From Candidatus Multivorans azotirespirans (GTDB taxonomy: Bacteria > Acidobacteriota > Thermoanaerobaculia > Multivoradales > Multivoraceae): a DNA stretch of 64,000 bases. The position numbers were made by a program, and so were the translations under genes. How positions within the stretch are numbered: the stretch's first letter is position 1; every line of letters starts with the position of its first letter. Below, in pieces: positions 4,503 through 21,339 of the stretch. Location: assembly GCA_027493095.1 (NCBI GenBank), contig JAPVXD010000198.1, forward strand, positions 30,253 to 94,252, given 5' to 3'. The notes under the pieces are model-generated. The model searched no databases. It saw only the letters and a list, made by a program, of their open reading frames with translations, and was not told the DNA's origin.

Positions 4503-4892
4503 TCAGCGAATCGGGCGAATCTCGACCCCAGGCAGGTTCAGCTTCAGCCAGGCCCGGTCAGCCGTGAGCGCAGGAAGACCGTGCGCGGTTGCCGTGGCGA
4601 GACACGCTCGGTCACCGAGCCCCAGGCCTGCCGCGGCTGTTGCAGGGCGAAGCGCCCCGCTGCGGAGTGCCATGTCAGAGTCGAAGGGCAGGATGTCGAC
4701 TCCGAGCGTGGCGAGAGAGTAGGCCACGGCGGGCTGTGACCATCCCTCATGGGTGAGTCGTGCAGCGACCTCTTCCACGTTGACAGCGGACATCGCTGCG
4801 CCGTCGGATAGGGCGCTGAACACCACCTCCGCCCCTGGTTCGCTCTGGATCAGCGCCAGCAGCGCCGACGCGTCCAGAAGAGAGCTAGCCAC
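4503..4892 (-). CDS. vapC: Type II toxin VapC (PIN domain)
   Basis: The track ORF is trimmed to a GTG start that overlaps the antitoxin stop by 8 nt. PIN-like N-terminus ASSLLDASALLALIQSEPGAE. Confidence 0.65.
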   Translation of the reverse strand: MASSLLDASALLALIQSEPGAEVVFSALSDGAAMSAVNVEEVAARLTHEGWSQPAVAYSLATLGVDILPFDSDMALRSGALRPATAAAGLGLGDRACLATATAHGLPALTADRAWLKLNLPGVEIRPIR

Positions 4893-5178
4893 CGAACTCC
4901 TTCCGAGCCTCAGCCCGGCGCTCGGCGATGAAGGCATCAACCTCGCCGCCCTTGCCGCCGCCGTACTTCCTGGCCAGGGCCTGGACCTTTGCCACAGCGG
5001 CGTCCAGCGCAGCCTCCGCCGTGGTCATCTTGATCGAGTCGCCCTCGAGTGTCAGGACCACCTCCTGGCGTGGCTGGAATCGTAGTGCGGCACGGAAGGG
5101 TGCTGGTACCACGAGCCGGCCGGCTGCGTCCACGACGGTTGATACGGACTCGACGGTTGGTTCCGCGTGTTGTGCCAT
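4885..5178 (-). CDS. vapB: Type II antitoxin, AbrB/MazE/SpoVT-fold (VapB)
   Basis: 97-aa protein with the swapped-hairpin motif VVDAAGRLVVPAPFRAALRF. It sits immediately upstream of and overlaps the PIN gene. Confidence 0.65.
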   Translation of the reverse strand: MAQHAEPTVESVSTVVDAAGRLVVPAPFRAALRFQPRQEVVLTLEGDSIKMTTAEAALDAAVAKVQALARKYGGGKGGEVDAFIAERRAEARKEFGG

Positions 5179-5270: not shown

Positions 5271-5948
5271 TCAGCCGCTGAGCATCTTCTCCCTGCGCTC
5301 GGCGCGGGTGAACGTGAGGGCGACGATCGCCGCGATCGCGAGGGCGGTGCCGATGCGATTCTGAACGTTCAGCGCGAGCATCTGCGCCGCGTCCGCCTCT
5401 TCCACGGCGAGCGGGTTCCAGAACGGTGAGACGCGGAACGAACCGAACAGCCGGTTGAGGCCGAGGACGCCGATCGTGGCGAGGGAGCCGGCCACGTCGC
5501 TGCGGAACAGGGTCGCGAAGCCCATGGCGGCAACGAGGTAGAAGACGACTCCCTGCGTCGCGCCGTACAGGCCCTGGAGAATCGGGAATTCCGTGAAGAA
5601 GGCATAAGTCACGCCGGCGAGGAGGACCAGGCTGACCAGGAGCATCAGGATCGCGGCGGCGAGCTTGCCGAGCCAGACCCGATGGGCGCCTCCGGGAACG
5701 GTGTAGGCAATCTCGAGGCTGTGCTGATCGAGTTCGCCTGTGATGATCCGGCCGCCCAGGAAGATCGCGAGCACGGCTACCGGTACGCCGATCAGGCTGT
5801 TCTGCGCCGCCGCCGGCTCCAGGGCAGGTCGCATGCCGGCTACCAGCATGAGGGCCTGTACTACGAGCCACACCAGCGGCAGCAAGGGCAGCAGCCAGTA
5901 CCGGCGTCCGCCAAGCAACACCGCCGAGGTGCGAAGCAGCGTGATCAT
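5271..5948 (-). CDS. Polytopic membrane protein, probable ABC-2-type permease partner of the upstream nucleotide-binding domain
   Basis: 225 aa with ~6 predicted TM helices. Its ATG overlaps the stop of the RND-ABC fusion ORF (ATGA), implying translational coupling. Confidence 0.55.
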   Translation of the reverse strand: MITLLRTSAVLLGGRRYWLLPLLPLVWLVVQALMLVAGMRPALEPAAAQNSLIGVPVAVLAIFLGGRIITGELDQHSLEIAYTVPGGAHRVWLGKLAAAILMLLVSLVLLAGVTYAFFTEFPILQGLYGATQGVVFYLVAAMGFATLFRSDVAGSLATIGVLGLNRLFGSFRVSPFWNPLAVEEADAAQMLALNVQNRIGTALAIAAIVALTFTRAERREKMLSG

Positions 5949-8900
5949 GCCGGCGCCTCAGTACGCACCGCGCGCGCGAGCCACAGGTAACCGTCCTCCA
6001 GCGTAGGCTCGGCGGGGGCGGCCCGCTCGTCCGGGCGGCCGGCGGCGAGTACGCGAAGGCTGCTCGTGCCGTCCGGTTCGGGCTTCTGGTCTGCCAGCAC
6101 GGCGCCCTCGGGCAGCTCGGGCACTTCTTCTTCGCCCGCCGTCCGCCACGACCACACTCTGCCCTCGGCTTCGCGCGACAACGCGGCCGGGTGGCCGTCG
6201 AAGACCATTCGACCGCGGCTCAACACAAGGACGCGATCGCACGCTACCGCCACGTCTTCGACGACGTGGGTCGAGAAGAGCACGATCCGGTCCTTCGCGA
6301 GCCGTGAGAGCAGGTTACGGAAGCGGACCCGCTCGCGGGGGTCGAGGCCGACGGTCGGTTCGTCGACGACGATGATCGGAGGCAACCGGAGCAGCGTGCG
6401 CGCCACCGCAACGCGCTGTCGCATTCCACCCGAGTAGCCGCCGATCTGCTCGTCGGCGCGCTCGTCGAGCCCGACCTCACGCAGCAGCGTCGAAATGCGT
6501 TCGGCCCGTTCCGACGTGTCGATCTGGTAGAGGGCGGCGTAGTACTCGAGGTACTGGCGGGCGGTCAGCCGGGGCGGCAGGCCGGCGTCCTGGGGCAGGT
6601 AGCCGACGTAGCGCGCGAGGCGCGTTCGGACGCTGAGCAACGGAACGCCGCCGAGCGTGATCCGGCCCCGCGTCGAGTCGAGGATTCCAGTCAACTGCCT
6701 GAGCAGCGTCGTCTTGCCGGCGCCGTTCGGGCCGAGCACTCCGACCATGCCGCGTTCGGCCTCGAAGCTCACCGCGGCCAGGGCCTTGACGGTGTCGATC
6801 GGCAGGTCCAGACCGAACACCTTCGTTGCCGCGGCGCGCCAGAGGCGAAGGAGCTGACCACGCCAGCCCCTTGCGCGTCGTCGCCGGGAGGTCCGCTGTT
6901 CCCGGCGCATCGTCTCGAGCCGCGCCGTGCGGCGTCCGAGCTGAACCAGCAGAATGACCGTGGAGACGATGGCCAGCGCGATGAACCCTGCGACTTCAGG
7001 ATCGGCGACCATCTCCGGAACGACCAGCCAGGCGAGAAGCGCCCAGGACAGCAGGGCCGTCAGCACGCCCTCGACGCCGCCCGGTTTCACGCGCCCGAGC
7101 TCGTCGGCGTGGCCCCGGGCGCGTCGGATCTCACGCAGCAGCCGGGAACCGATCAGCAGGATGGCGATCAGGACTCCGAGGATGATCAGGCCGCCGGTCA
7201 TCCGCGCCGCCAGGGCGACGGCGCCGGCGAACAGGAGCAGGAGAGGCAGCAGCCGGTCACGGGCGTCGGCCGGCTCAAAGGCCCGGCCGCCCTGGGCGGC
7301 GACCCGCCTGGCGAAGTCGGCGGTAGCCCGCAGCGCCCGGCGCACCGGGCCGGGGAGGCCGTACGTCTTGCGCAGGTGGCGGACGACGAGCTTTGGTGGG
7401 CCGGCGGCCGTTTCCGGCTCGGGCGACGGCGGCTTCGGCAGCAGCCACACGGTGAGGCCGAGCAGCGCTCCGGCGATCAGCACCGTGGTCGTGATCTGCC
7501 AGAACATCGACTCGATCACGCCGAACGCGAACAGAGGCGCGGTCGTCGCGATGACGGCGCCGAGCCAGGTCAGCACGACCCAGGGGCCGACGCGGCTGAA
7601 CAGTTCGTCGAGGCGTCGCAGGAAGACGAAGCCGACCGGGATGACGAGCAACGTCAGCAGGGTCGCGGTCAGCAGGCCACCGATCACGAGCGTCGCAAAG
7701 GGCGGCCAGATCTCGTTCTCGCGCCCGGTCGCGATGGACAGGGGCGCCAGCGCCGCGACCGTCGTGGCGGACGTCATCAGGACCGGGCGCGCTCGCTCGC
7801 GGACGGCGGCGAGGGCGGCCGCGCCGGCGCTCCAGCCGGCGCCCAGCGTGTGCTGCTGCATTCGGTCGACGAGCAGGACGGCCGGGTTGATCGCCAACCC
7901 GAGCAGAACCAGTGCTCCGAGCAGAGCCATCGCCTCGAAGCCGATGCCGGTCAGGACCAGGGCCCAGACCGAGCCGAGCAGCGCGAGGGGAAGGGCGATC
8001 AGGACGAGGATTGGCAGCGTCATCGACTCGAACGTCACCGCCAGGACGAGGAAGACCAGAAGAACGACCGGCACCACGATGCGCCGGAACCAGTTCGTGC
8101 TCTCCCCGGAGCGGTCGAGCGCGATGGTCGTGCCCGCGGGCCGGTGGATGCTGGCGATCGCCTCGTCCAGGCTCCGGTCGAAGGCGTCGCGCGCCGGGCC
8201 CCGCCGCGGCACGTCCGGCGACAGGGTGTAGAAGACCTCCCGTTCGCGGACGCCGTTGTGGTGGGTGATGACCGGGGAAGGCGGCGCCTGCCGCACCTGC
8301 GCCAGGGCGGCGACCGGCAGGACTCCGGCCCCGGTCGAGACGCGGAGCCGCTGCAGCCCGCTGAGCGACACGTCGCGGTCGAGGCTGCTGTCGTTCGGGG
8401 GCTCGGCCTCGTCGCGCCGCTCCTCCGACCGTTGGACGACGATCGGCAACTCCCGCCCGCTGTCAAGCGGATAGCCGGTGTTGATCCTGGTCCCTTCGCG
8501 TCCGGCCAGATTCAGCATCGGCAGTACCTCGTCCAGGAGCACGCCGAACGTGTCGAAGGCGCGCCGGTTCGGACTCACGTGGAGTTCGTCGGGCCCTGGG
8601 CGTACCGCCGGATAGGCGCCTGCGATGCCCTCGATCTCCCGTAAACGCTCGGTGACCTGGGCCGCGAGGTCCGTCAACTGTTCGTTGTCGTTGCCGGAAA
8701 GGACGACCCGGGATGGGCCGCCGCCGAGCAGTTCCTGGGCGCCGCCGCCTCTGCCGCCTCCGCCGCCTCCACGTCCTCCCGGGCCTTCGCCCTCGCCCGG
8801 ATTGAGGAGTTCGGCGCCGGCGCGCCGGGCCGGGGGACGCAGCAGCTGCCGTACGCGTCTGGCCGTCAGCCCCTCAGGTCGCTCGTCTTCCTCCACCAGG

Positions 8901-10762
8901 TGGACGGTGAGCGATCCTCCCTCTTCCCGGATCATGCTCTCGACGCGGTCGACGCCCTCGACTTCCTGAATCGTCTCGAGACGTTCAAAGACGCGGACGG
9001 CGGAGTCGAGGCTTCCGCGGCCCTCGGGCAGGCGGACGGAGAGTTGGACCTGATCGGCGATAGGCGCCTGGCCCGGTCCGCTCGAAGCGACCAGGAACAG
9101 GGCGGCGATGACGCTCAGGACGACGGCCGTGACGACACCCGTGATCCAGCTCGCCGGCCGGCGCAGGGCGGAGGCAAGCACGCCCGCGAACAGAATCCGC
9201 GTGGGGTCGGGCGGCACCAGTCCGCCGAAGCGTTCGCGGCGTTGACGCAGCTTGGTCAACCGTCGAATCGCGGCCGGTGCCGCGAGATGCCGCGCCAGCA
9301 GGGGCACCAGTCCGATCGCCACCAGGAGGGAGCCGAACAGCGGCAGCAGGATGGCCAGCGACAGGAGCGCGATCAGGTTCTGGATCAGGGACGACTCCAG
9401 GTCGACGATGACGGCGGGCAGGAAGACGATCGCCGTCGTTACGGAAGCGGCGACGATGGCGCGGCCCGTACGCCGGATGCCCCCGGCCGCGGCGTCGTCG
9501 GGACTCCTGCCGCGTTCCAGACGGCGCTGGACGGACTCGAACACGACGACGCTGTTGTCCACGATGAGTCCGACGCCGATGGCCAGCCCGAAGAGCGTGA
9601 ACAGGTTGAGCGACAGACCGGCCACGTAGAGGAAGGAGAGAGCCACCGCCAGACTGACCGGCACGGCGACCGCGACCACGGCAACCGCGCGCCACTGGCG
9701 GAGGAAGAGGAACAGGACCAGGAGCGCGATTCCGAAACCCGAGAGACCGAGGTTCCGCAGTCGGTCGATCTGCGTTTCGACCAGGTCGGCGGCGTCGAAG
9801 CTCGGGAGCAGGCGGATGCCGAGGGGAGTGAACTCCTCGTTGATCTCATCGATCCGGCGGCGCAGATCGCGACCGAGCCGCACCAGATTGGCGCCTTCCT
9901 CCTGGAACACCATGACGCCGACCGACGGCTCGCCGTTGACCCGGTACAGCATCTGACGGCGGCCCGAGCCGATCTCGACGTCGGCCACGTGGCGAACCAG
10001 GACGGGAAGGTCGGGGACCACCCGGACCTCGCCCATCGACACCGGGCCGGCTGGCCGGCCGTCGAGCATCACCGCCGTCCGCCCTGCCTCGTCCTCCAGG
10101 CTGCCGAGGTAGCGGAGGCGTCCCGCCGCACCGCGCACCGCCGCGGTCACCTGCTCCGTCGTCACGCCGAGCGCGGCACAGCGGTTCGGGTCGACCCACA
10201 CGGTCAGCTGGCGCGAGGCGCCGCCGCCCAGCATCGCCTGGCTGACCCCCGGCACCGCGGCCAGCCGGGGCGTGATCATCTCGTCGACCAGATCGTACAG
10301 TGCATCCTCGTCGTCGGAACCGGTCACCTGCAGGATCATGGCGAAGCTCGAGAAGACACTGGTGTCGTCGGCCTGCACGTCCAGGAAGGCGTCTCGCGGC
10401 TGTGTCCGTGCGAGATCGGCGGCGATGCGGCGCATCTCGAGTTCGCGCACCTTGAGATCGACGCCGCGCTCGAAGCGGACGGTGAAGCTGCCGGCGGCGC
10501 CGCTGACCTCGCCCCAGGTCTCGGCTACCCGGGGCAGTGTCCGGACCCGGGCTTCGAGCGGCATCAGAATCTCCCGCTCGATCGTCTCCGGTTCGCTGCC
10601 CGGGCGGAAGAAACTGACGTAGAGCGAGTCGCCCGTGAGGGCAGGGAACAGTTCGACGGGAAGTCTCTGCCAGGCGAACCCGCCGAGCATGACGAGTGCG
10701 ACGAAGAACATCGTCACCGCCACCGGGCGGCGGATGGCGAGCGTGTCGAGACCGGCTTTCAC
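5945..10762 (-). CDS. RND-family permease (AcrB/MdtC-like) fused in frame to extra TM helices and a C-terminal ABC transporter ATP-binding domain (1605 aa)
   Basis: N-terminal ~1040 aa is a complete RND permease: RRPVAVTMFFVALVMLGGFAWQRLPVELFP, two large periplasmic loops and 12 TM helices. A 230-aa hydrophobic segment follows. The C-terminal ~290 aa carries Walker A GPNGAGKTT, signature YSGGMRQR, Walker B IIVVDEPTVGLD and H-loop STHVV. There is no stop codon between the parts; I checked the junction codons LVIPVGFVFLRRLDELFSRVGPW directly. Confidence 0.8.
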   Translation of the reverse strand: MKAGLDTLAIRRPVAVTMFFVALVMLGGFAWQRLPVELFPALTGDSLYVSFFRPGSEPETIEREILMPLEARVRTLPRVAETWGEVSGAAGSFTVRFERGVDLKVRELEMRRIAADLARTQPRDAFLDVQADDTSVFSSFAMILQVTGSDDEDALYDLVDEMITPRLAAVPGVSQAMLGGGASRQLTVWVDPNRCAALGVTTEQVTAAVRGAAGRLRYLGSLEDEAGRTAVMLDGRPAGPVSMGEVRVVPDLPVLVRHVADVEIGSGRRQMLYRVNGEPSVGVMVFQEEGANLVRLGRDLRRRIDEINEEFTPLGIRLLPSFDAADLVETQIDRLRNLGLSGFGIALLVLFLFLRQWRAVAVVAVAVPVSLAVALSFLYVAGLSLNLFTLFGLAIGVGLIVDNSVVVFESVQRRLERGRSPDDAAAGGIRRTGRAIVAASVTTAIVFLPAVIVDLESSLIQNLIALLSLAILLPLFGSLLVAIGLVPLLARHLAAPAAIRRLTKLRQRRERFGGLVPPDPTRILFAGVLASALRRPASWITGVVTAVVLSVIAALFLVASSGPGQAPIADQVQLSVRLPEGRGSLDSAVRVFERLETIQEVEGVDRVESMIREEGGSLTVHLVEEDERPEGLTARRVRQLLRPPARRAGAELLNPGEGEGPGGRGGGGGGRGGGAQELLGGGPSRVVLSGNDNEQLTDLAAQVTERLREIEGIAGAYPAVRPGPDELHVSPNRRAFDTFGVLLDEVLPMLNLAGREGTRINTGYPLDSGRELPIVVQRSEERRDEAEPPNDSSLDRDVSLSGLQRLRVSTGAGVLPVAALAQVRQAPPSPVITHHNGVREREVFYTLSPDVPRRGPARDAFDRSLDEAIASIHRPAGTTIALDRSGESTNWFRRIVVPVVLLVFLVLAVTFESMTLPILVLIALPLALLGSVWALVLTGIGFEAMALLGALVLLGLAINPAVLLVDRMQQHTLGAGWSAGAAALAAVRERARPVLMTSATTVAALAPLSIATGRENEIWPPFATLVIGGLLTATLLTLLVIPVGFVFLRRLDELFSRVGPWVVLTWLGAVIATTAPLFAFGVIESMFWQITTTVLIAGALLGLTVWLLPKPPSPEPETAAGPPKLVVRHLRKTYGLPGPVRRALRATADFARRVAAQGGRAFEPADARDRLLPLLLLFAGAVALAARMTGGLIILGVLIAILLIGSRLLREIRRARGHADELGRVKPGGVEGVLTALLSWALLAWLVVPEMVADPEVAGFIALAIVSTVILLVQLGRRTARLETMRREQRTSRRRRARGWRGQLLRLWRAAATKVFGLDLPIDTVKALAAVSFEAERGMVGVLGPNGAGKTTLLRQLTGILDSTRGRITLGGVPLLSVRTRLARYVGYLPQDAGLPPRLTARQYLEYYAALYQIDTSERAERISTLLREVGLDERADEQIGGYSGGMRQRVAVARTLLRLPPIIVVDEPTVGLDPRERVRFRNLLSRLAKDRIVLFSTHVVEDVAVACDRVLVLSRGRMVFDGHPAALSREAEGRVWSWRTAGEEEVPELPEGAVLADQKPEPDGTSSLRVLAAGRPDERAAPAEPTLEDGYLWLARAVRTEAPA

Positions 10763-13985: not shown

Positions 13986-15059
13986 CTAGCCGGACACCCG
14001 GACGCGTGTGCCGTCGGTCAGGGTTTCGAGTCCGCGCACAACGATCCGCTCGCCGATCTCGAGCCCCTGGCGGACTTCCGCGATCTCGTCGTCGCCGAGA
14101 CCGAGCACCACCTCGCGCCGCACGGCACGCTGACCGTCGAGCACGAACACGACCCGCCGGCCGCCGCGCTCGGTGACCGCTTCGCGGGGGATGACGGGCA
14201 CGGCGTTCCGTTGTTCCACGACCAGGGTCACCTCGACGAACATGCCGGGCCGCAGCAGGCCTCCAGGATTGTTGATCGCCACTTCGGCGCGGAAGGTGTG
14301 GGTTGTCGGATCGACTTCGGGGGACAGGCGGACGACCGCACCCTCGAAGGTGATGTCTTCCCAGGCGAAGTGTCGGAGCCGTCCCTTCTGGCCGGGGTGG
14401 ACCCGTGCGAGTTCCGGGCCCACAAGGTCGATGTCGGCCACGAGAGAGTCAACCGGGGCGATCCGCGCGACCTGGAACCCCGGCGACACGAGCTGGCCGT
14501 CCGCGATCGGCATGCCGCTCGTGTCGCGGGCAAGCTCCATCAGCACGCCCCCGATCGGGGTCAGCATTCTGGCGCGGTCTTCCGTCAGCAGGCTCTGCTC
14601 CCAGGTCGCCTTGGCGTCTTCGAGCGCGGTCTCGGCCCGGCGCAACTCCTCGGCGGCGATCAGTTCCTGCTGGAACAGCCGGGCGCGGGCGTCCCGCTCG
14701 GCGAGAGCGCCCTGGTAGGCCTGGTGCGTCGCCCCGACCCGGGCCGCGAGTCGCGCATCTTCGCCCGTGACTTCCGCGATCATCTGGTCGGGGACCACGC
14801 GATCGCCCTCGGCGAGCCGACTGCCGTTGTTGTTCCGCCCGATCTGGAGCCGACCCGGTGTCTCGACCTGGAGCACGATGCTCTCCGCGGCGCGCAGGGT
14901 GCCGGTGGCGACAATCAGGTCCTCCACATCGCCGGTCCGGACCTCGGCGGCGCTGACGGGGACCAGGAAGTCGACGGTGTCCGTGGTGCCTGCCGCGTCG
15001 CAACCCAGGACGAGCACGCAAGCGGCTGCCGCCGCGCCCAGCCACTGCCGCGCGCTCAC
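13986..15059 (-). CDS. Efflux RND periplasmic adaptor (membrane fusion protein), lipoprotein
   Basis: HlyD/MFP-like C-terminal half. The start is assigned to GTG at 15059 (VSARQWLGAAAAACVLVLGCDAAG lipoprotein signal), which overlaps the upstream gene's stop (GTGA). The longer upstream in-frame extension is Arg-rich junk. Confidence 0.8.
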   Translation of the reverse strand: MSARQWLGAAAAACVLVLGCDAAGTTDTVDFLVPVSAAEVRTGDVEDLIVATGTLRAAESIVLQVETPGRLQIGRNNNGSRLAEGDRVVPDQMIAEVTGEDARLAARVGATHQAYQGALAERDARARLFQQELIAAEELRRAETALEDAKATWEQSLLTEDRARMLTPIGGVLMELARDTSGMPIADGQLVSPGFQVARIAPVDSLVADIDLVGPELARVHPGQKGRLRHFAWEDITFEGAVVRLSPEVDPTTHTFRAEVAINNPGGLLRPGMFVEVTLVVEQRNAVPVIPREAVTERGGRRVVFVLDGQRAVRREVVLGLGDDEIAEVRQGLEIGERIVVRGLETLTDGTRVRVSG

Positions 15060-19572: not shown

Positions 19573-19788
19573 GATAGCTCTCCTCCTCGCTGTCTATACG
19601 GTTGTCGGCGGGGCTTGGTTTACTCGCGCGCGTCGATTGCCTGGCAGTGCCTACCGTAGCGCCTTTCCGTTCCGTGAAACCGGATCGTGTTCGCCAGCGT
19701 AAACTGAGTAGTCGTATAGTATGTCGCGCAAGGCGGGCTGACTGCGCCCGCCAACAACGCTGGACACCAGACCTCACGGAGACCTCGA
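19573..19788. promoter_or_regulatory. Divergent promoter/operator region between the transporter cluster and the cytochrome-monooxygenase-like gene
   Basis: At 216 bp this is the least GC-rich stretch nearby. It contains inverted repeats CTATACG...CGTATAG about 105 bp apart, GTTTACTC/TACTCAGTTTAC, and the GC hairpin GCGGGCTGACTGCGCCCGC (19733-19751). Confidence 0.4.
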
Positions 19789-21267
19789 ATGAACCGTCCC
19801 CAGATCTCGTCCGTGACCCGGCTGCTCGCCCTCGGCGCCCTCGCTTCGCTGGCCCTTGCCGGCGCTGCCTCGGCTGCCGCGGTCGACCCCGAGCCGATTA
19901 CCTTCTACGCTGACGTGGCGGCCGTGCTGCAGCAGGAATGCCAGGTCTGCCACCGTCCCAACGGCGCCAACCTCGGCGGCATGGTGGCGCCGATGGCGCT
20001 CACGACCTACGAAGAGACGCGTCCCTGGGCGCGCTCGATCGCGCGCCAGGTCGCGACGCGGGCGATGCCTCCGTGGGACGCCGCGCCCGAGCACAACGGC
20101 GTCTTCGCCAACGAGCGCACGCTGACCCAGAAGCAGATCGATCTCCTCGTCCGCTGGGCCGAATCCGGCGCTCCCGCGGGCGATCCCGCGGACGCTCCGG
20201 CGCCGATCGAGTGGCCGAGCAGCGACGGCTGGCTGATCGGGGAGCCCGACCTCGTCCTCCAGTTCGACGAGCCCTACTTCGTCGAGGACGACGTCGATGA
20301 TCTCTACATCTACTTCAAGACGAGTGTGACCGACGAGATGATCCCGGAAGACCGCTACGTCAAGGCGATCGAGTTCCGGCCCGGCAGTTCGGCGGTTCAC
20401 CACATCATCGTCCCCGGCCTGGGTGGCATCGCCCCGGGCAACGACCCGGTGATCCACACGGACGGCATGGCCGACGTGCTGAAGGCGGGCCGCGATCTGC
20501 AGTGGCAGATGCACTACCACAAGGAGCCCGGCGAGGGCACCGGCGTGTGGGATCAGTCCTCGGTGGCGCTCAAGTTCTACGACAAGGACGAGGACGTGAA
20601 GTACGAGGTCTTCAACGCCGACATGGGCAAGTACGACTTCGCCGTGCCGCCGGGCGCCTCGGACTACACGATCCAGACCGAGTGGACGTTCCCTTCGGAC
20701 TCCGAGATCGTCGGCTACCTGCCGCACATGCACCTGCGCGGCAAGGCGGCCAAGTACGAGGCCTACTACCCGGACGGCAGCCACGAAGTCCTGCTCGACG
20801 TGCCGAACTACGACTTCAACTGGCAGACCACCTACAAGTACAAGGAACGCAAGAAGATGCCGGCCGGCACTCGCGTGGTCCTGACCACGGTGTTCGACAA
20901 CTCGGAGAACAACCCGGCCAACCCGGACCCGACCGCGACGGTCCGCTGGGGCGAGCCGACGACGGATGAGATGAGCTTCGGCTTCGTGTCGTACATCAAC
21001 GAGGAGAACAAGGGGCGCGGCGCCTTCCAGGGCGACGACGGCCTCGACCTGACGGCGGTCGTCGCGTTTTCCGACGACAGCCGCGACGGCAAGATGCAGC
21101 TCGAAGAGGCTCCTGGCGGGGTCAAGCAGTACTTCGAGATGATGGACCAGAACAAGGACGGCGCCGTCGACATGGAGGAGGCGAAGGCCGCCAACGCCTT
21201 CCTCAAGCAGATGGCCGAGCAGCGGGAGAAGGCTGAGGCCGCGGCTGCCGGAGCCGCCGGCGGCTAG
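19789..21267 (+). CDS. Secreted c-type cytochrome (PSCyt1-like domain) fused to a copper type II ascorbate-dependent monooxygenase-like (PHM/DBH-like) domain with a C-terminal EF-hand
   Basis: GGAGA RBS and signal peptide are present. CQVCH haem-binding motif sits in a PSCyt1-like context (…MPPW…IDLLVRWAESGAP). HH (SAVHHIIV), HMH (LPHMHLRG) and a distal Met are arranged like the CuH/CuM sites. DQNKDGAVDMEE matches the EF-hand loop consensus. Confidence 0.7.
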   Translation: MNRPQISSVTRLLALGALASLALAGAASAAAVDPEPITFYADVAAVLQQECQVCHRPNGANLGGMVAPMALTTYEETRPWARSIARQVATRAMPPWDAAPEHNGVFANERTLTQKQIDLLVRWAESGAPAGDPADAPAPIEWPSSDGWLIGEPDLVLQFDEPYFVEDDVDDLYIYFKTSVTDEMIPEDRYVKAIEFRPGSSAVHHIIVPGLGGIAPGNDPVIHTDGMADVLKAGRDLQWQMHYHKEPGEGTGVWDQSSVALKFYDKDEDVKYEVFNADMGKYDFAVPPGASDYTIQTEWTFPSDSEIVGYLPHMHLRGKAAKYEAYYPDGSHEVLLDVPNYDFNWQTTYKYKERKKMPAGTRVVLTTVFDNSENNPANPDPTATVRWGEPTTDEMSFGFVSYINEENKGRGAFQGDDGLDLTAVVAFSDDSRDGKMQLEEAPGGVKQYFEMMDQNKDGAVDMEEAKAANAFLKQMAEQREKAEAAAAGAAGG

Positions 21268-21339
21268 CAAGCCTCTACGCTGGTCCGCTCAACCGAACCG
21301 CCGGCGCGCCGCAAGGCCGCCGGCGGTTCTGCGTTATGG

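Follow-up and report, generated by a model that had tools for sequence, protein, structure and literature searches.

Can an efflux engine driven by protons and one driven by ATP be built into a single polypeptide? The question is raised by a 64,000-nucleotide stretch of DNA from the acidobacterium Candidatus Multivorans azotirespirans (assembly GCA_027493095.1, contig JAPVXD010000198.1, positions 30,253 to 94,252; hereafter the window), in which one open reading frame (ORF) on the reverse strand appears to join a permease of the resistance-nodulation-division (RND) family to the nucleotide-binding domain (NBD) of an ATP-binding cassette (ABC) transporter. RND pumps, which use the proton-motive force, and ABC transporters, which use ATP, are normally viewed as separate classes of inner-membrane engine for tripartite efflux, and the 2021 Chem Rev review of tripartite pumps lists ABC, RND and major facilitator superfamily (MFS) pumps as alternatives (PMC8277102). 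We conclude that the ORF, which is gene 5 of a six-gene cassette, encodes a genuine, ancient and conserved fusion protein, in which the cytoplasmic C-terminus of a full HAE-1-like RND permease continues covalently into an ATPase of the ABC-2 subfamily, and we consider what kind of exporter the cassette as a whole may encode.

The RND-NBD fusion is a genuine gene product

The fusion ORF begins with GTG, 13 nt past the stop codon of gene 4 (TGA at 10778-10776), and runs for 1605 codons with no stop, indel or frame break. A first reading of this DNA, made from the letters and their ORFs without database searches (the sequence-only reading), had proposed exactly such a continuous frame, and codon-position composition bears it out: all sixteen 100-codon blocks have a G+C content of 0.78-0.96 at third positions (GC3) and 0.39-0.56 at second positions (GC2), and codons 1001-1400, which span the junction, carry an identical frame signature. 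Pfam recognizes both halves in the same chain, ACR_tran (PF00873) at E 1.1e-144 and 484 bits (cut-off 28; best stretch residues 8-616, plus a second stretch) and ABC_tran (PF00005) at E 3e-27 and 96.4 bits (cut-off 25; residues 1330-1470). The last 300 residues, on whose identity the sequence-only reading had made its proposal depend, are a true NBD by Pfam and NCBIfam, and the motifs that it had listed are all in place (GPNGAGKTT at 1344-1352, YSGGMRQR at 1443-1450, IIVVDEPTVGLD at 1463-1474 and STHVV at 1497-1501). The 225-aa ABC-2-type permease that it had placed next, coupled through ATGA, is indeed encoded there and is a divergent member of its family.

Whether any database protein carries both domains, a question left by the same reading, is answered by a similarity search over ~5.8 billion protein clusters, for which all figures refer to the best 120 matches. 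PF00873 and PF00005 occur together in one chain in 119 of these 120 clusters, at 54-100% identity and ~99% coverage; the 119 are ~1570-1640 aa long, with a few longer, they derive from NCBI, ENA, JGI, Logan and Tara assemblies, and their named sources are metagenome-assembled genomes (MAGs) of Holophagales, Thermoanaerobaculia or Acidobacteriota. An exact-sequence look-up of the window protein returned no match, possibly owing to its GTG start, and identical or near-identical proteins (P0001, P0002) were recovered by similarity. A genome scan with the linker alignment yielded one true relative, locus L008, the other matches reflecting the generic GPNGAGKTT motif. A second search, with homologues of the L008 fusion, added ~60 more distant clusters with both domains, of 1408-1470 aa (Candidatus Omnitrophota, Candidatus Hinthialibacter and candidate division BRC1/Sumerlaeota) or 1559-1621 aa, before reaching the acidobacterial family at 25-27% identity and then plain RNDs. 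In total, at least 180 clusters from independent assemblies contain both domains, and they span Acidobacteriota, Omnitrophota, Sumerlaeota/BRC1 and Hinthialibacter; all carriers of the fusion are MAGs.

These results bear directly on the most trivial explanation, namely that an RND gene and the ABC gene downstream of it only seem to be one, through a missed stop, a frameshift, assembly chimerism or the merging of two gene calls. Long spurious ORFs are frequent in DNA of 70% G+C, many stand among the ORFs listed for this stretch, and a few database homologues (P0126, P0138) are clearly frameshifted. Against this, the in-frame architecture recurs in the clusters counted above, down to 25% identity and across all five assembly sources, the GC3 signature is continuous throughout the ORF, and the linker between the two halves is conserved and has invariant residues. 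An artefact is hardly conceivable, and we regard this explanation as effectively refuted.

The RND module

The permease half is complete, as had been proposed: the NCBIfam model NF033617 (RND_permease_2) aligns residues 8-1049 to positions 3-1008 of its 1009, and the module has the 12 transmembrane (TM) helices and the two large periplasmic loops, after TM1 and after TM7, of an RND pump, with concordant hydropathy. Its scores lie below the curated cut-offs of both RND_permease_2 (376.6 bits versus 1250) and TIGR00915 (281.5 versus 940), and it is a divergent RND rather than an equivalog of any named pump. Residues 606-803, in the periplasmic region, have no sequence alignment to the solved RNDs. 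The second periplasmic loop also contains a Gly-rich stretch of low complexity (GEGEGPGGRGGGGGGRGGGAQELLGGGP, residues 656-683, window positions 8714..8797 on the reverse strand), which remains Gly-rich throughout the acidobacterial family. An HMA domain match in one homologue (P0191) was considered as a clue to a metal substrate and was rejected, because no stretch of it is significant and it falls within the porter domain of the RND.

The residues of the proton relay are of particular interest. The AcrB residues D407, D408, K940, N941, R971 and T978, whose roles are described in the review cited above (PMC8277102), correspond in an alignment to solved pumps to D402, N403, N959, P960, R990 and T997 of the fusion. 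Over 140 aligned sequences, the equivalents of D407, R971 and T978 are essentially invariant in fusions and plain relatives, while those of D408 (the second Asp of TM4, here Asn or Ser) and K940 (the Lys of TM10, here Asn) are absent from the fused RND. This DN/NN/D pattern is also that of 42 related plain RNDs, which marks the lack of the Lys and of the second Asp as a property of this RND subfamily that fusion did not cause; a fusion-specific loss of the proton relay was accordingly rejected. The RND module is probably still coupled to protons.

The linker and the nucleotide-binding domain

The region between the RND module and the NBD is the least conventional part of the protein. The sequence-only reading had described ~6 hydrophobic helices in ~230 aa; the helices stand, and the length is ~275 aa (residues 1051-1324). 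Hydropathy and an AlphaFold2 (AF2) model of residues 880-1605, built from 65 sequences (mean pLDDT 88.0, pTM 0.74), agree on three TM hairpins at 1060-1079/1086-1107, 1164-1187/1192-1215 and 1229-1253/1257-1288, with Arg-rich cytoplasmic loops. Between the first and second hairpins lies a segment, LVVRHLRKTY (residues 1125-1134), that is nearly invariant in the family, reads in parallel with VDVQGLRHVY, the first strand (β1) and A-loop of the free NBD paralogue encoded by gene 1, and forms a predicted strand in the model (its residues 246-255, pLDDT ~90). It is part of the stretch KLVVRHLRKTYG (1124-1135) that the sequence-only reading had rightly picked out as the N-terminal strand of an NBD cut off from the remainder by TM helices. 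TM15-18 are inserted in the β1-β2 loop of the NBD, for which we know of no precedent among described ABC ATPases, a point on which no search was made. The strand probably pairs with the NBD sheet, since β-structure in the model is otherwise confined to the NBD and its C-terminal domain, apart from two single-residue bridges in the loop between TM16 and TM17; Foldseek alignments of the fused NBD begin at β2. In the established topology of RND pumps TM12 ends in the cytoplasm, and with two and then four further helices both β1 and the NBD should be cytoplasmic; the location of the fused ATPase is deduced from these TM counts, the positive-inside rule and RND topology.

All the residues expected of a working ATPase are present, including K1350 of Walker A, Q1391 of the Q-loop, SGGM at 1444-1447, D1467 of Walker B, the catalytic E1468 and H1499 of the H-loop. 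Walker A, the Q-loop, SGGM, the Walker B Asp-Glu pair, the D-loop and the H-loop are invariant or nearly so in 113 family members and in a 65-sequence alignment of the superfamily, and the A-loop aromatic residue is retained in 65 of 65 fusions; the fused NBD is predicted to be catalytically competent. The top NCBIfam matches, over residues 1324-1541, are GldA, DrrA and NodI, all below their curated cut-offs. Foldseek ranks TM_1403 (4yer, E 1e-17) and NosF first among the fold matches, ahead of FtsE, LptB and the MacB NBD, and the target-normalised TM-scores against TM_1403, NosF, FtsE and LptB are ~0.64-0.83. The β-rich domain that follows the NBD core is common to the free NBD paralogue and to fusions with short linkers.

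Distribution and origin of the fusion

The fusions differ most in the linker. At L008 (6938-11251, forward strand) a 1437-aa RND-NBD fusion has a short linker with no TM helices, and fusions of this short-linker type (1408-1470 aa), which also occur at L022 and L023 and in the Omnitrophota, BRC1/Sumerlaeota and Hinthialibacter MAGs, have TM-less tethers of 41-118 aa. Walker A follows the A-loop Tyr after 24 aa in the free NBD. In the fusions this spacing rises to 46 aa for the BRC1 type, 60-71 aa for the Omnitrophota type and 181-258 aa, TM helices included, for the window lineage. Because the insertion between β1 and Walker A varies by lineage in this way, the split β1 is best taken as ancestral to the superfamily and the TM helices as later; the extra helices are a lineage-specific addition that the short-linker relatives lack. 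A HMMER search with the linker only (residues 1045-1325) gave 33 clusters at 50% identity among 1.84 billion representatives, every one a fusion or a fragment of a fusion, and it gave no convincing stand-alone ancestor composed of linker and NBD. One of these matches, P0127 (539 aa), seems to be truncated, as its first residue falls within TM13.

When RND domains are placed in a neighbour-joining tree, calculated without support values and indicative only, the fused RNDs stand apart from plain RNDs, and the plain RND partners of the fusions form one clade with a branching that mirrors that of the fusions. This hints at a single ancient fusion event, after which the fusion and its plain partner were inherited together. 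A plasmid collection gave generic NBD matches and no fusion, and hence the fusion is not a known mobile resistance gene.

Some homologues depart from the common architecture. P0126 and P0138 continue past the linker in out-of-frame sequence rich in Arg, Pro and Ala and are frameshifted assemblies or pseudogenes, which advises caution with single-contig evidence in this family. Three others (P0071, P0073 and P0081, 1840-1876 aa) start with ~250 additional residues, containing sigma-70 region 4 domains, ahead of the RND module, and these are probably gene calls merged with an upstream ECF sigma factor.

A conserved six-gene cassette

The fusion gene does not stand alone. It belongs to a set of six genes, all on the reverse strand and separated by gaps of at most 27 nt or by 4-nt overlaps (Table 1). 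The set comprises a free ABC NBD, a large permease, an adaptor of the membrane fusion protein (MFP) family, a plain RND, the fusion and a small permease.

Table 1. Genes of the cassette and parts of the fusion protein, with positions in the window and the basis of each assignment
Feature	Position	Strand	Basis
Gene 1, free ABC NBD, 328 aa	18586..19572	-	ABC_tran E 4.4e-31; NCBIfam top matches DrrA, GldA
Gene 2, ABC-2 permease (7 TM) with M1-aminopeptidase-like domain and Golvesin_C, 1177 aa	15056..18589	-	Pfam, NCBIfam, AF2, Foldseek
Gene 3, MFP lipoprotein adaptor, ~357 aa	13986..15059	-	RND_mfp E 2.5e-46; HlyD_D23; lipobox ...VLVLGC
Gene 4, plain RND paralogue, 1060 aa	10776..13958	-	ACR_tran E 1.4e-199, full length
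Gene 5, RND-TM6-NBD fusion, 1605 aa	5945..10762	-	One ORF; Pfam ACR_tran and ABC_tran in the same chain
Gene 5, RND permease module, residues 1-1050, 12 TM, two periplasmic loops	7613..10762	-	NCBIfam, alignment to solved RND pumps
Gene 5, relay residues D402 (TM4), R990/T997 (TM11)	within 7613..10762	-	Tabulated over 140 sequences
Gene 5, extra hairpin TM13-TM14, residues 1060-1107	7442..7585	-	Family-averaged hydropathy; AF2 helices 181-200, 207-228
Gene 5, detached NBD β1 and A-loop Tyr Y1134, residues 1124-1135	7358..7393	-	Near-invariance; AF2 strand 246-255
Gene 5, extra hairpins TM15-16 and TM17-18, residues 1164-1288	6899..7273	-	Hydropathy; AF2 helices 285-308, 313-336, 350-374, 378-409
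Gene 5, ABC NBD core, residues 1325-1540	6143..6790	-	Pfam, NCBIfam, motif invariance, Foldseek
Gene 5, NBD C-terminal β-rich domain, residues 1541-1605, ending PTLEDGYLWL	5948..6142	-	Sequence sharing; AF2 strands 657-693
Gene 6, small ABC-2-type permease, 225 aa	5271..5948	-	ATG overlaps fusion TGA (ATGA); weak PF12679; hhalign

The same six components are found at 11 loci that represent nine distinct cassettes (the window, L001, L002, L004, L008, L021, L022, L023 and L025), L003 and L005 being repeats of L002 and L004 on further contigs. The gene order of the window recurs in L001 (Thermoanaerobaculia), L002/L003, L004/L005 (marine), L021 and L025, with unrelated flanking genes. A second order, seen in L022 (Omnitrophota), L023 and L008, runs adaptor, NBD, small permease, RND, large protein, fusion, and in L008 and L022 the fusion is followed by a gene for an outer-membrane factor of the OEP family. 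The adjacency of NBD and permease is swapped between the two orders, such that in the second the free NBD adjoins the small permease and the large permease adjoins the fusion. Two RND paralogues and one adaptor occur together in nine of nine distinct cassettes.

The small permease of gene 6 scores 17.5 bits against PF12679, below the cut-off of 27.2, while its orthologues in L008 and L022 are above it, and a search of PDB profiles with the gene 6 alignment gave nothing meaningful. By hhalign, gene 6 is homologous to the NosY/GldF-like N-terminal transmembrane domain (TMD) of gene 2 (probability 95.4%, E 1.9e-8), and profile comparison identifies gene 2 and the large protein found in the second gene order as orthologues (729 columns, probability 99.6%). 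The free and fused NBDs are 36-40% identical, have all motifs in canonical form and share both subfamily and C-terminal domain. Given these two relationships, the homology of the permease TMDs and the orthology of the large protein across orders, the cassette can be described, from its sequences, as three pairs (two RNDs, two NBDs and two ABC-2 TMDs) and one adaptor.

The start of gene 3, as read from the sequence, is GTG at 15059, which overlaps the stop of gene 2 as GTGA. Its longest ORF is 515 aa (to 15533) and overlaps gene 2; the GTG at 15059 is the likely start and gives a lipoprotein signal and the lipobox MSARQWLGAAAAACVLVLGC. A scan for promoters and terminators gave counts at chance level. 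Downstream of the cassette are a PIN-domain protein (PF01850, E 1.7e-14; 4503..4940, reverse strand) and, before it and overlapping it, a 97-aa ORF (4885..5178, reverse strand), which together look like a VapBC-type toxin-antitoxin pair. Directly upstream is a 498-aa ORF (19774..21270, reverse strand) that has no match in Pfam or NCBIfam and is not conserved beside other cassettes.

A large permease with a pseudo-peptidase domain

The gene 2 protein is unusual in its own right. Its AF2 model (pLDDT 87.4, pTM 0.85) has seven TM helices followed by ~880 aa, a region that Foldseek aligns over ~640 columns, with E ~1e-15 and ~10% identity, to IRAP, the lanthipeptide peptidase EryP, ERAP1 and PepN. 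Pfam Peptidase_M1 does not match gene 2. The catalytic HExxH motif of such enzymes is at its expected position in none of 115 gene 2 homologues, and on the helix in question the gene 2 protein of the window reads HNLVN. An active peptidase was rejected for want of this motif and, since it is a pseudo-peptidase, the large domain is more likely to serve in binding or hand-over than as an enzyme. The seventh TM helix and the KRR loop that precedes it would place this domain, by the positive-inside rule, in the periplasm. A Golvesin_C β-domain lies C-terminal to the pseudo-peptidase region.

Public sources name the homologues of gene 2 after NosY-type permeases. Two distant ones, at L024:10001-13216 and L026:10001-13471, have no RND or NBD neighbours; one is from a gammaproteobacterial MAG and one lies beside a TonB-dependent receptor. 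The pseudo-M1 protein is thus not confined to the cassette.

How the cassette might work

We propose that all parts of the cassette form one composite envelope exporter, in which a heteromeric RND/MFP pump would have an ABC-2 module permanently tethered to it and ATP and the proton-motive force would act on one export route, a proposal for and against which we find the case evenly balanced. The free and fused NBDs would form, with the large and small ABC-2 permeases, a heterodimeric ATP-driven module that would move its substrate, or hand it over, at the inner membrane and periplasm. The plain and fused RNDs would form, with the adaptor, a heteromeric, proton-driven pump, possibly an MdtB2C-like heterotrimer, that takes the substrate onward. 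The peptide bond between TM12 and the NBD would fix the proximity and the stoichiometry of the two engines, and with a single fused protomer in each RND trimer, the three-fold symmetry of the RND and the two-fold symmetry of the ABC module would be reconciled. An NBD requires a dimer partner and a TMD, and the cassette supplies exactly one further NBD and two ABC-2 TMDs; a heterodimeric module anchored through one fused protomer is the simplest arrangement that uses every conserved part and resolves the clash of trimer and dimer. The recurrence of the same six components in nine distinct cassettes, in two gene orders and among differing flanking genes, supports this proposal, as do the swap of NBD and permease neighbours between those orders, the homology of the two permeases, the orthology of the large one across orders and the plain-RND clade that mirrors the fusions. 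The RND heterotrimer MdtBC offers a precedent (PMC8277102), and in E. coli pumps that work from cytoplasm to periplasm cooperate functionally with TolC-dependent pumps, for which Shuster et al. (2016) postulated a 'close interaction' (PMC4822809). The cassette would hard-wire this two-stage logic. The sequence-only reading had offered a machine using both energy sources, or an ABC exporter on an RND scaffold, and both seem plausible functional readings.

Several points weigh against our proposal. The cassette of the window has no gene for an outer-membrane factor. The stoichiometry, the choice of NBD partners and any physical contact between ABC and RND parts are deduced from gene content, and with the AcrB D408 and K940 equivalents missing, proton coupling of the RND module is an assumption. 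The fused NBD shares only 36-40% identity with the free NBD, compared with ~44% with unrelated haloarchaeal ABC-2 NBDs, and hence co-evolution of the two cassette NBDs as a pair is not obvious. Other genomes contain homologues of gene 2 on their own, and the tree that pairs fused with plain RNDs is, as noted, an indication. That all six or seven cassette proteins make up a single supercomplex, with a heterodimeric ABC-2 engine, a pseudo-M1 domain feeding a heterotrimeric RND and one fused anchor, is a stronger claim that we think somewhat doubtful.

The same parts could be assigned to two separate ABC-2 transporters, in which the fused NBDs dimerise, either within one RND trimer (two fused protomers to one plain) or between neighbouring trimers, and work with a homodimer of gene 6, while the products of genes 1 and 2 form an independent homodimeric transporter that shares the operon. 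Solved ABC-2-type systems such as NosDFY are built on homodimers of NBD and TMD, and NosF is among the best fold matches of the fused NBD; moreover, translational coupling in the window links the fusion with gene 6 and the free NBD with gene 2, and both NBDs have fully canonical motifs, as those of homodimers would. This neighbour pairing is, however, reversed in the Omnitrophota and BRC1-type cassettes, and all six components are present in each of the nine distinct cassettes, so that we consider two transporters rather unlikely. NosF, together with the NosY-type names given to gene 2 homologues, also brings to mind the mechanotransmission that has been proposed for NosDFY or MacB-type systems. 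By analogy, ATP hydrolysis might move the M1-like domain of gene 2 and thereby load or gate the porter domains of the RND, with no transfer of substrate across the inner membrane, and an M1-fold domain of ~880 aa whose zinc site is lost in 115 of 115 homologues does suggest binding and not catalysis. Contact between this domain and the RND has no direct evidence, however, and its periplasmic placement comes from the TM count and the positive-inside rule. We consider mechanotransmission quite unlikely, and it is compatible with our proposal rather than exclusive of it.

A further option is that the NBD drives the TM domain of the RND directly, replacing or supplementing the proton-motive force, with the RND reduced to a passive periplasmic and adaptor-docking scaffold. 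The covalent link from TM12 to the NBD, the absence of the AcrB D408 and K940 equivalents and the extra TM helices of the window lineage, which could transmit motion, would all fit such an ATP-powered RND. The substitutions, however, are common to the 42 related plain RNDs that have no NBD, and the equivalents of D407, R971 and T978 are conserved. Moreover, the TM-less tethers of 41-118 aa in the short-linker relatives would make for poor rigid coupling, and two ABC-2 permeases able to engage the NBDs in the conventional way are always encoded alongside. We judge direct driving of the RND by ATP to be improbable.

Novelty and significance

A full-text literature search, which left out most subscription papers and in which absence is not proof, found no published description of an RND-NBD fusion or of a protein of the gene 2 type, in keeping with the statement of the sequence-only reading that no such RND-NBD protein had been described. 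Nor did we find a paper that discusses the pairing of ACR_tran and ABC_tran as one architecture, with the same subscription papers outside the search, and the fusion is absent from the accessible part of the 2021 review of tripartite pumps (PMC8277102). Public databases already hold such fusions under automatic names, for example 'multidrug efflux pump subunit AcrB/ABC-type multidrug transport system ATPase subunit'. What is new is the recognition of the fusion as a conserved architecture of several phyla with a fixed set of partners, the modules themselves being known families.

The existence of a covalent RND-ABC hybrid conserved across several phyla means that evolution has repeatedly retained both engines in physically joined form. 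If the composite exporter is correct, it would provide a natural and purifiable case of the 'close interaction' postulated between cytoplasm-clearing and periplasm-clearing pumps (PMC4822809), a system in which to test how three-fold RND and two-fold ABC assemblies are reconciled, and a handle on a widespread and unstudied export system of Acidobacteriota, Omnitrophota and Sumerlaeota. The supercomplex, if true, would be the first known envelope exporter powered by ATP and the proton-motive force together.

Comparison with known systems

The known systems closest to the permease half are the HAE-1 pumps of the AcrB/MexB type, with which the fusion shares a full-length ACR_tran match, 12 TM helices, the pair of large periplasmic loops, and the relay residues Asp (in TM4), Arg and Thr (both in TM11); an adaptor gene adjoins the cassette RNDs, and in some lineages there is a gene for an outer-membrane factor. 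Unlike these pumps, the fusion carries six extra TM helices and an ABC NBD at its C-terminus, has Asn in place of D408 and K940, scores below the NCBIfam cut-offs, and differs in its unaligned residues 606-803 and its Gly-rich insertion at 656-683. As in MdtB2C and MuxBC, the cassette has two adjacent RND paralogues with one adaptor gene, and the pair is conserved and co-diversified; it differs from them in that one of its RNDs is fused to an NBD and that the operon also encodes ABC components.

On the ABC side, the fused NBD resembles those of the ABC-2 exporters (NosDFY, DrrAB, NodIJ, GldAFG and TM_1403) in sequence and fold, including the C-terminal domain, and the cassette likewise provides ABC-2 partner permeases. 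It is set apart from them by the tether to an RND, by the β1-β2 insertion, which places the A-loop Tyr 46 to 258 aa before Walker A and in the window lineage holds four TM helices, and by a pseudo-M1-peptidase domain on one of the permeases. In MacB the NBD is N-terminal and is fused to the protein's own 4-TM permease, whose first two helices flank a periplasmic domain; there is no RND component. The cassette is similar to MacAB-TolC in having an ABC ATPase, an adaptor, in some lineages an outer-membrane factor, and a large, putatively periplasmic domain on an ABC permease. It is dissimilar in that the NBD of the fusion follows a 12-TM RND and that its permeases belong to the ABC-2 type with 6-7 TM helices, and Pfam detects no FtsX or MacB_PCD domain in the fusion. 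The proposed two-stage logic of the cassette resembles the functional 'transporter interactome' of E. coli (PMC4822809), where single-component pumps of the inner membrane feed AcrAB-TolC, an RND tripartite pump that expels from the periplasm. The partners there are separate proteins with no demonstrated complex, whereas here they are covalently joined and inherited together.

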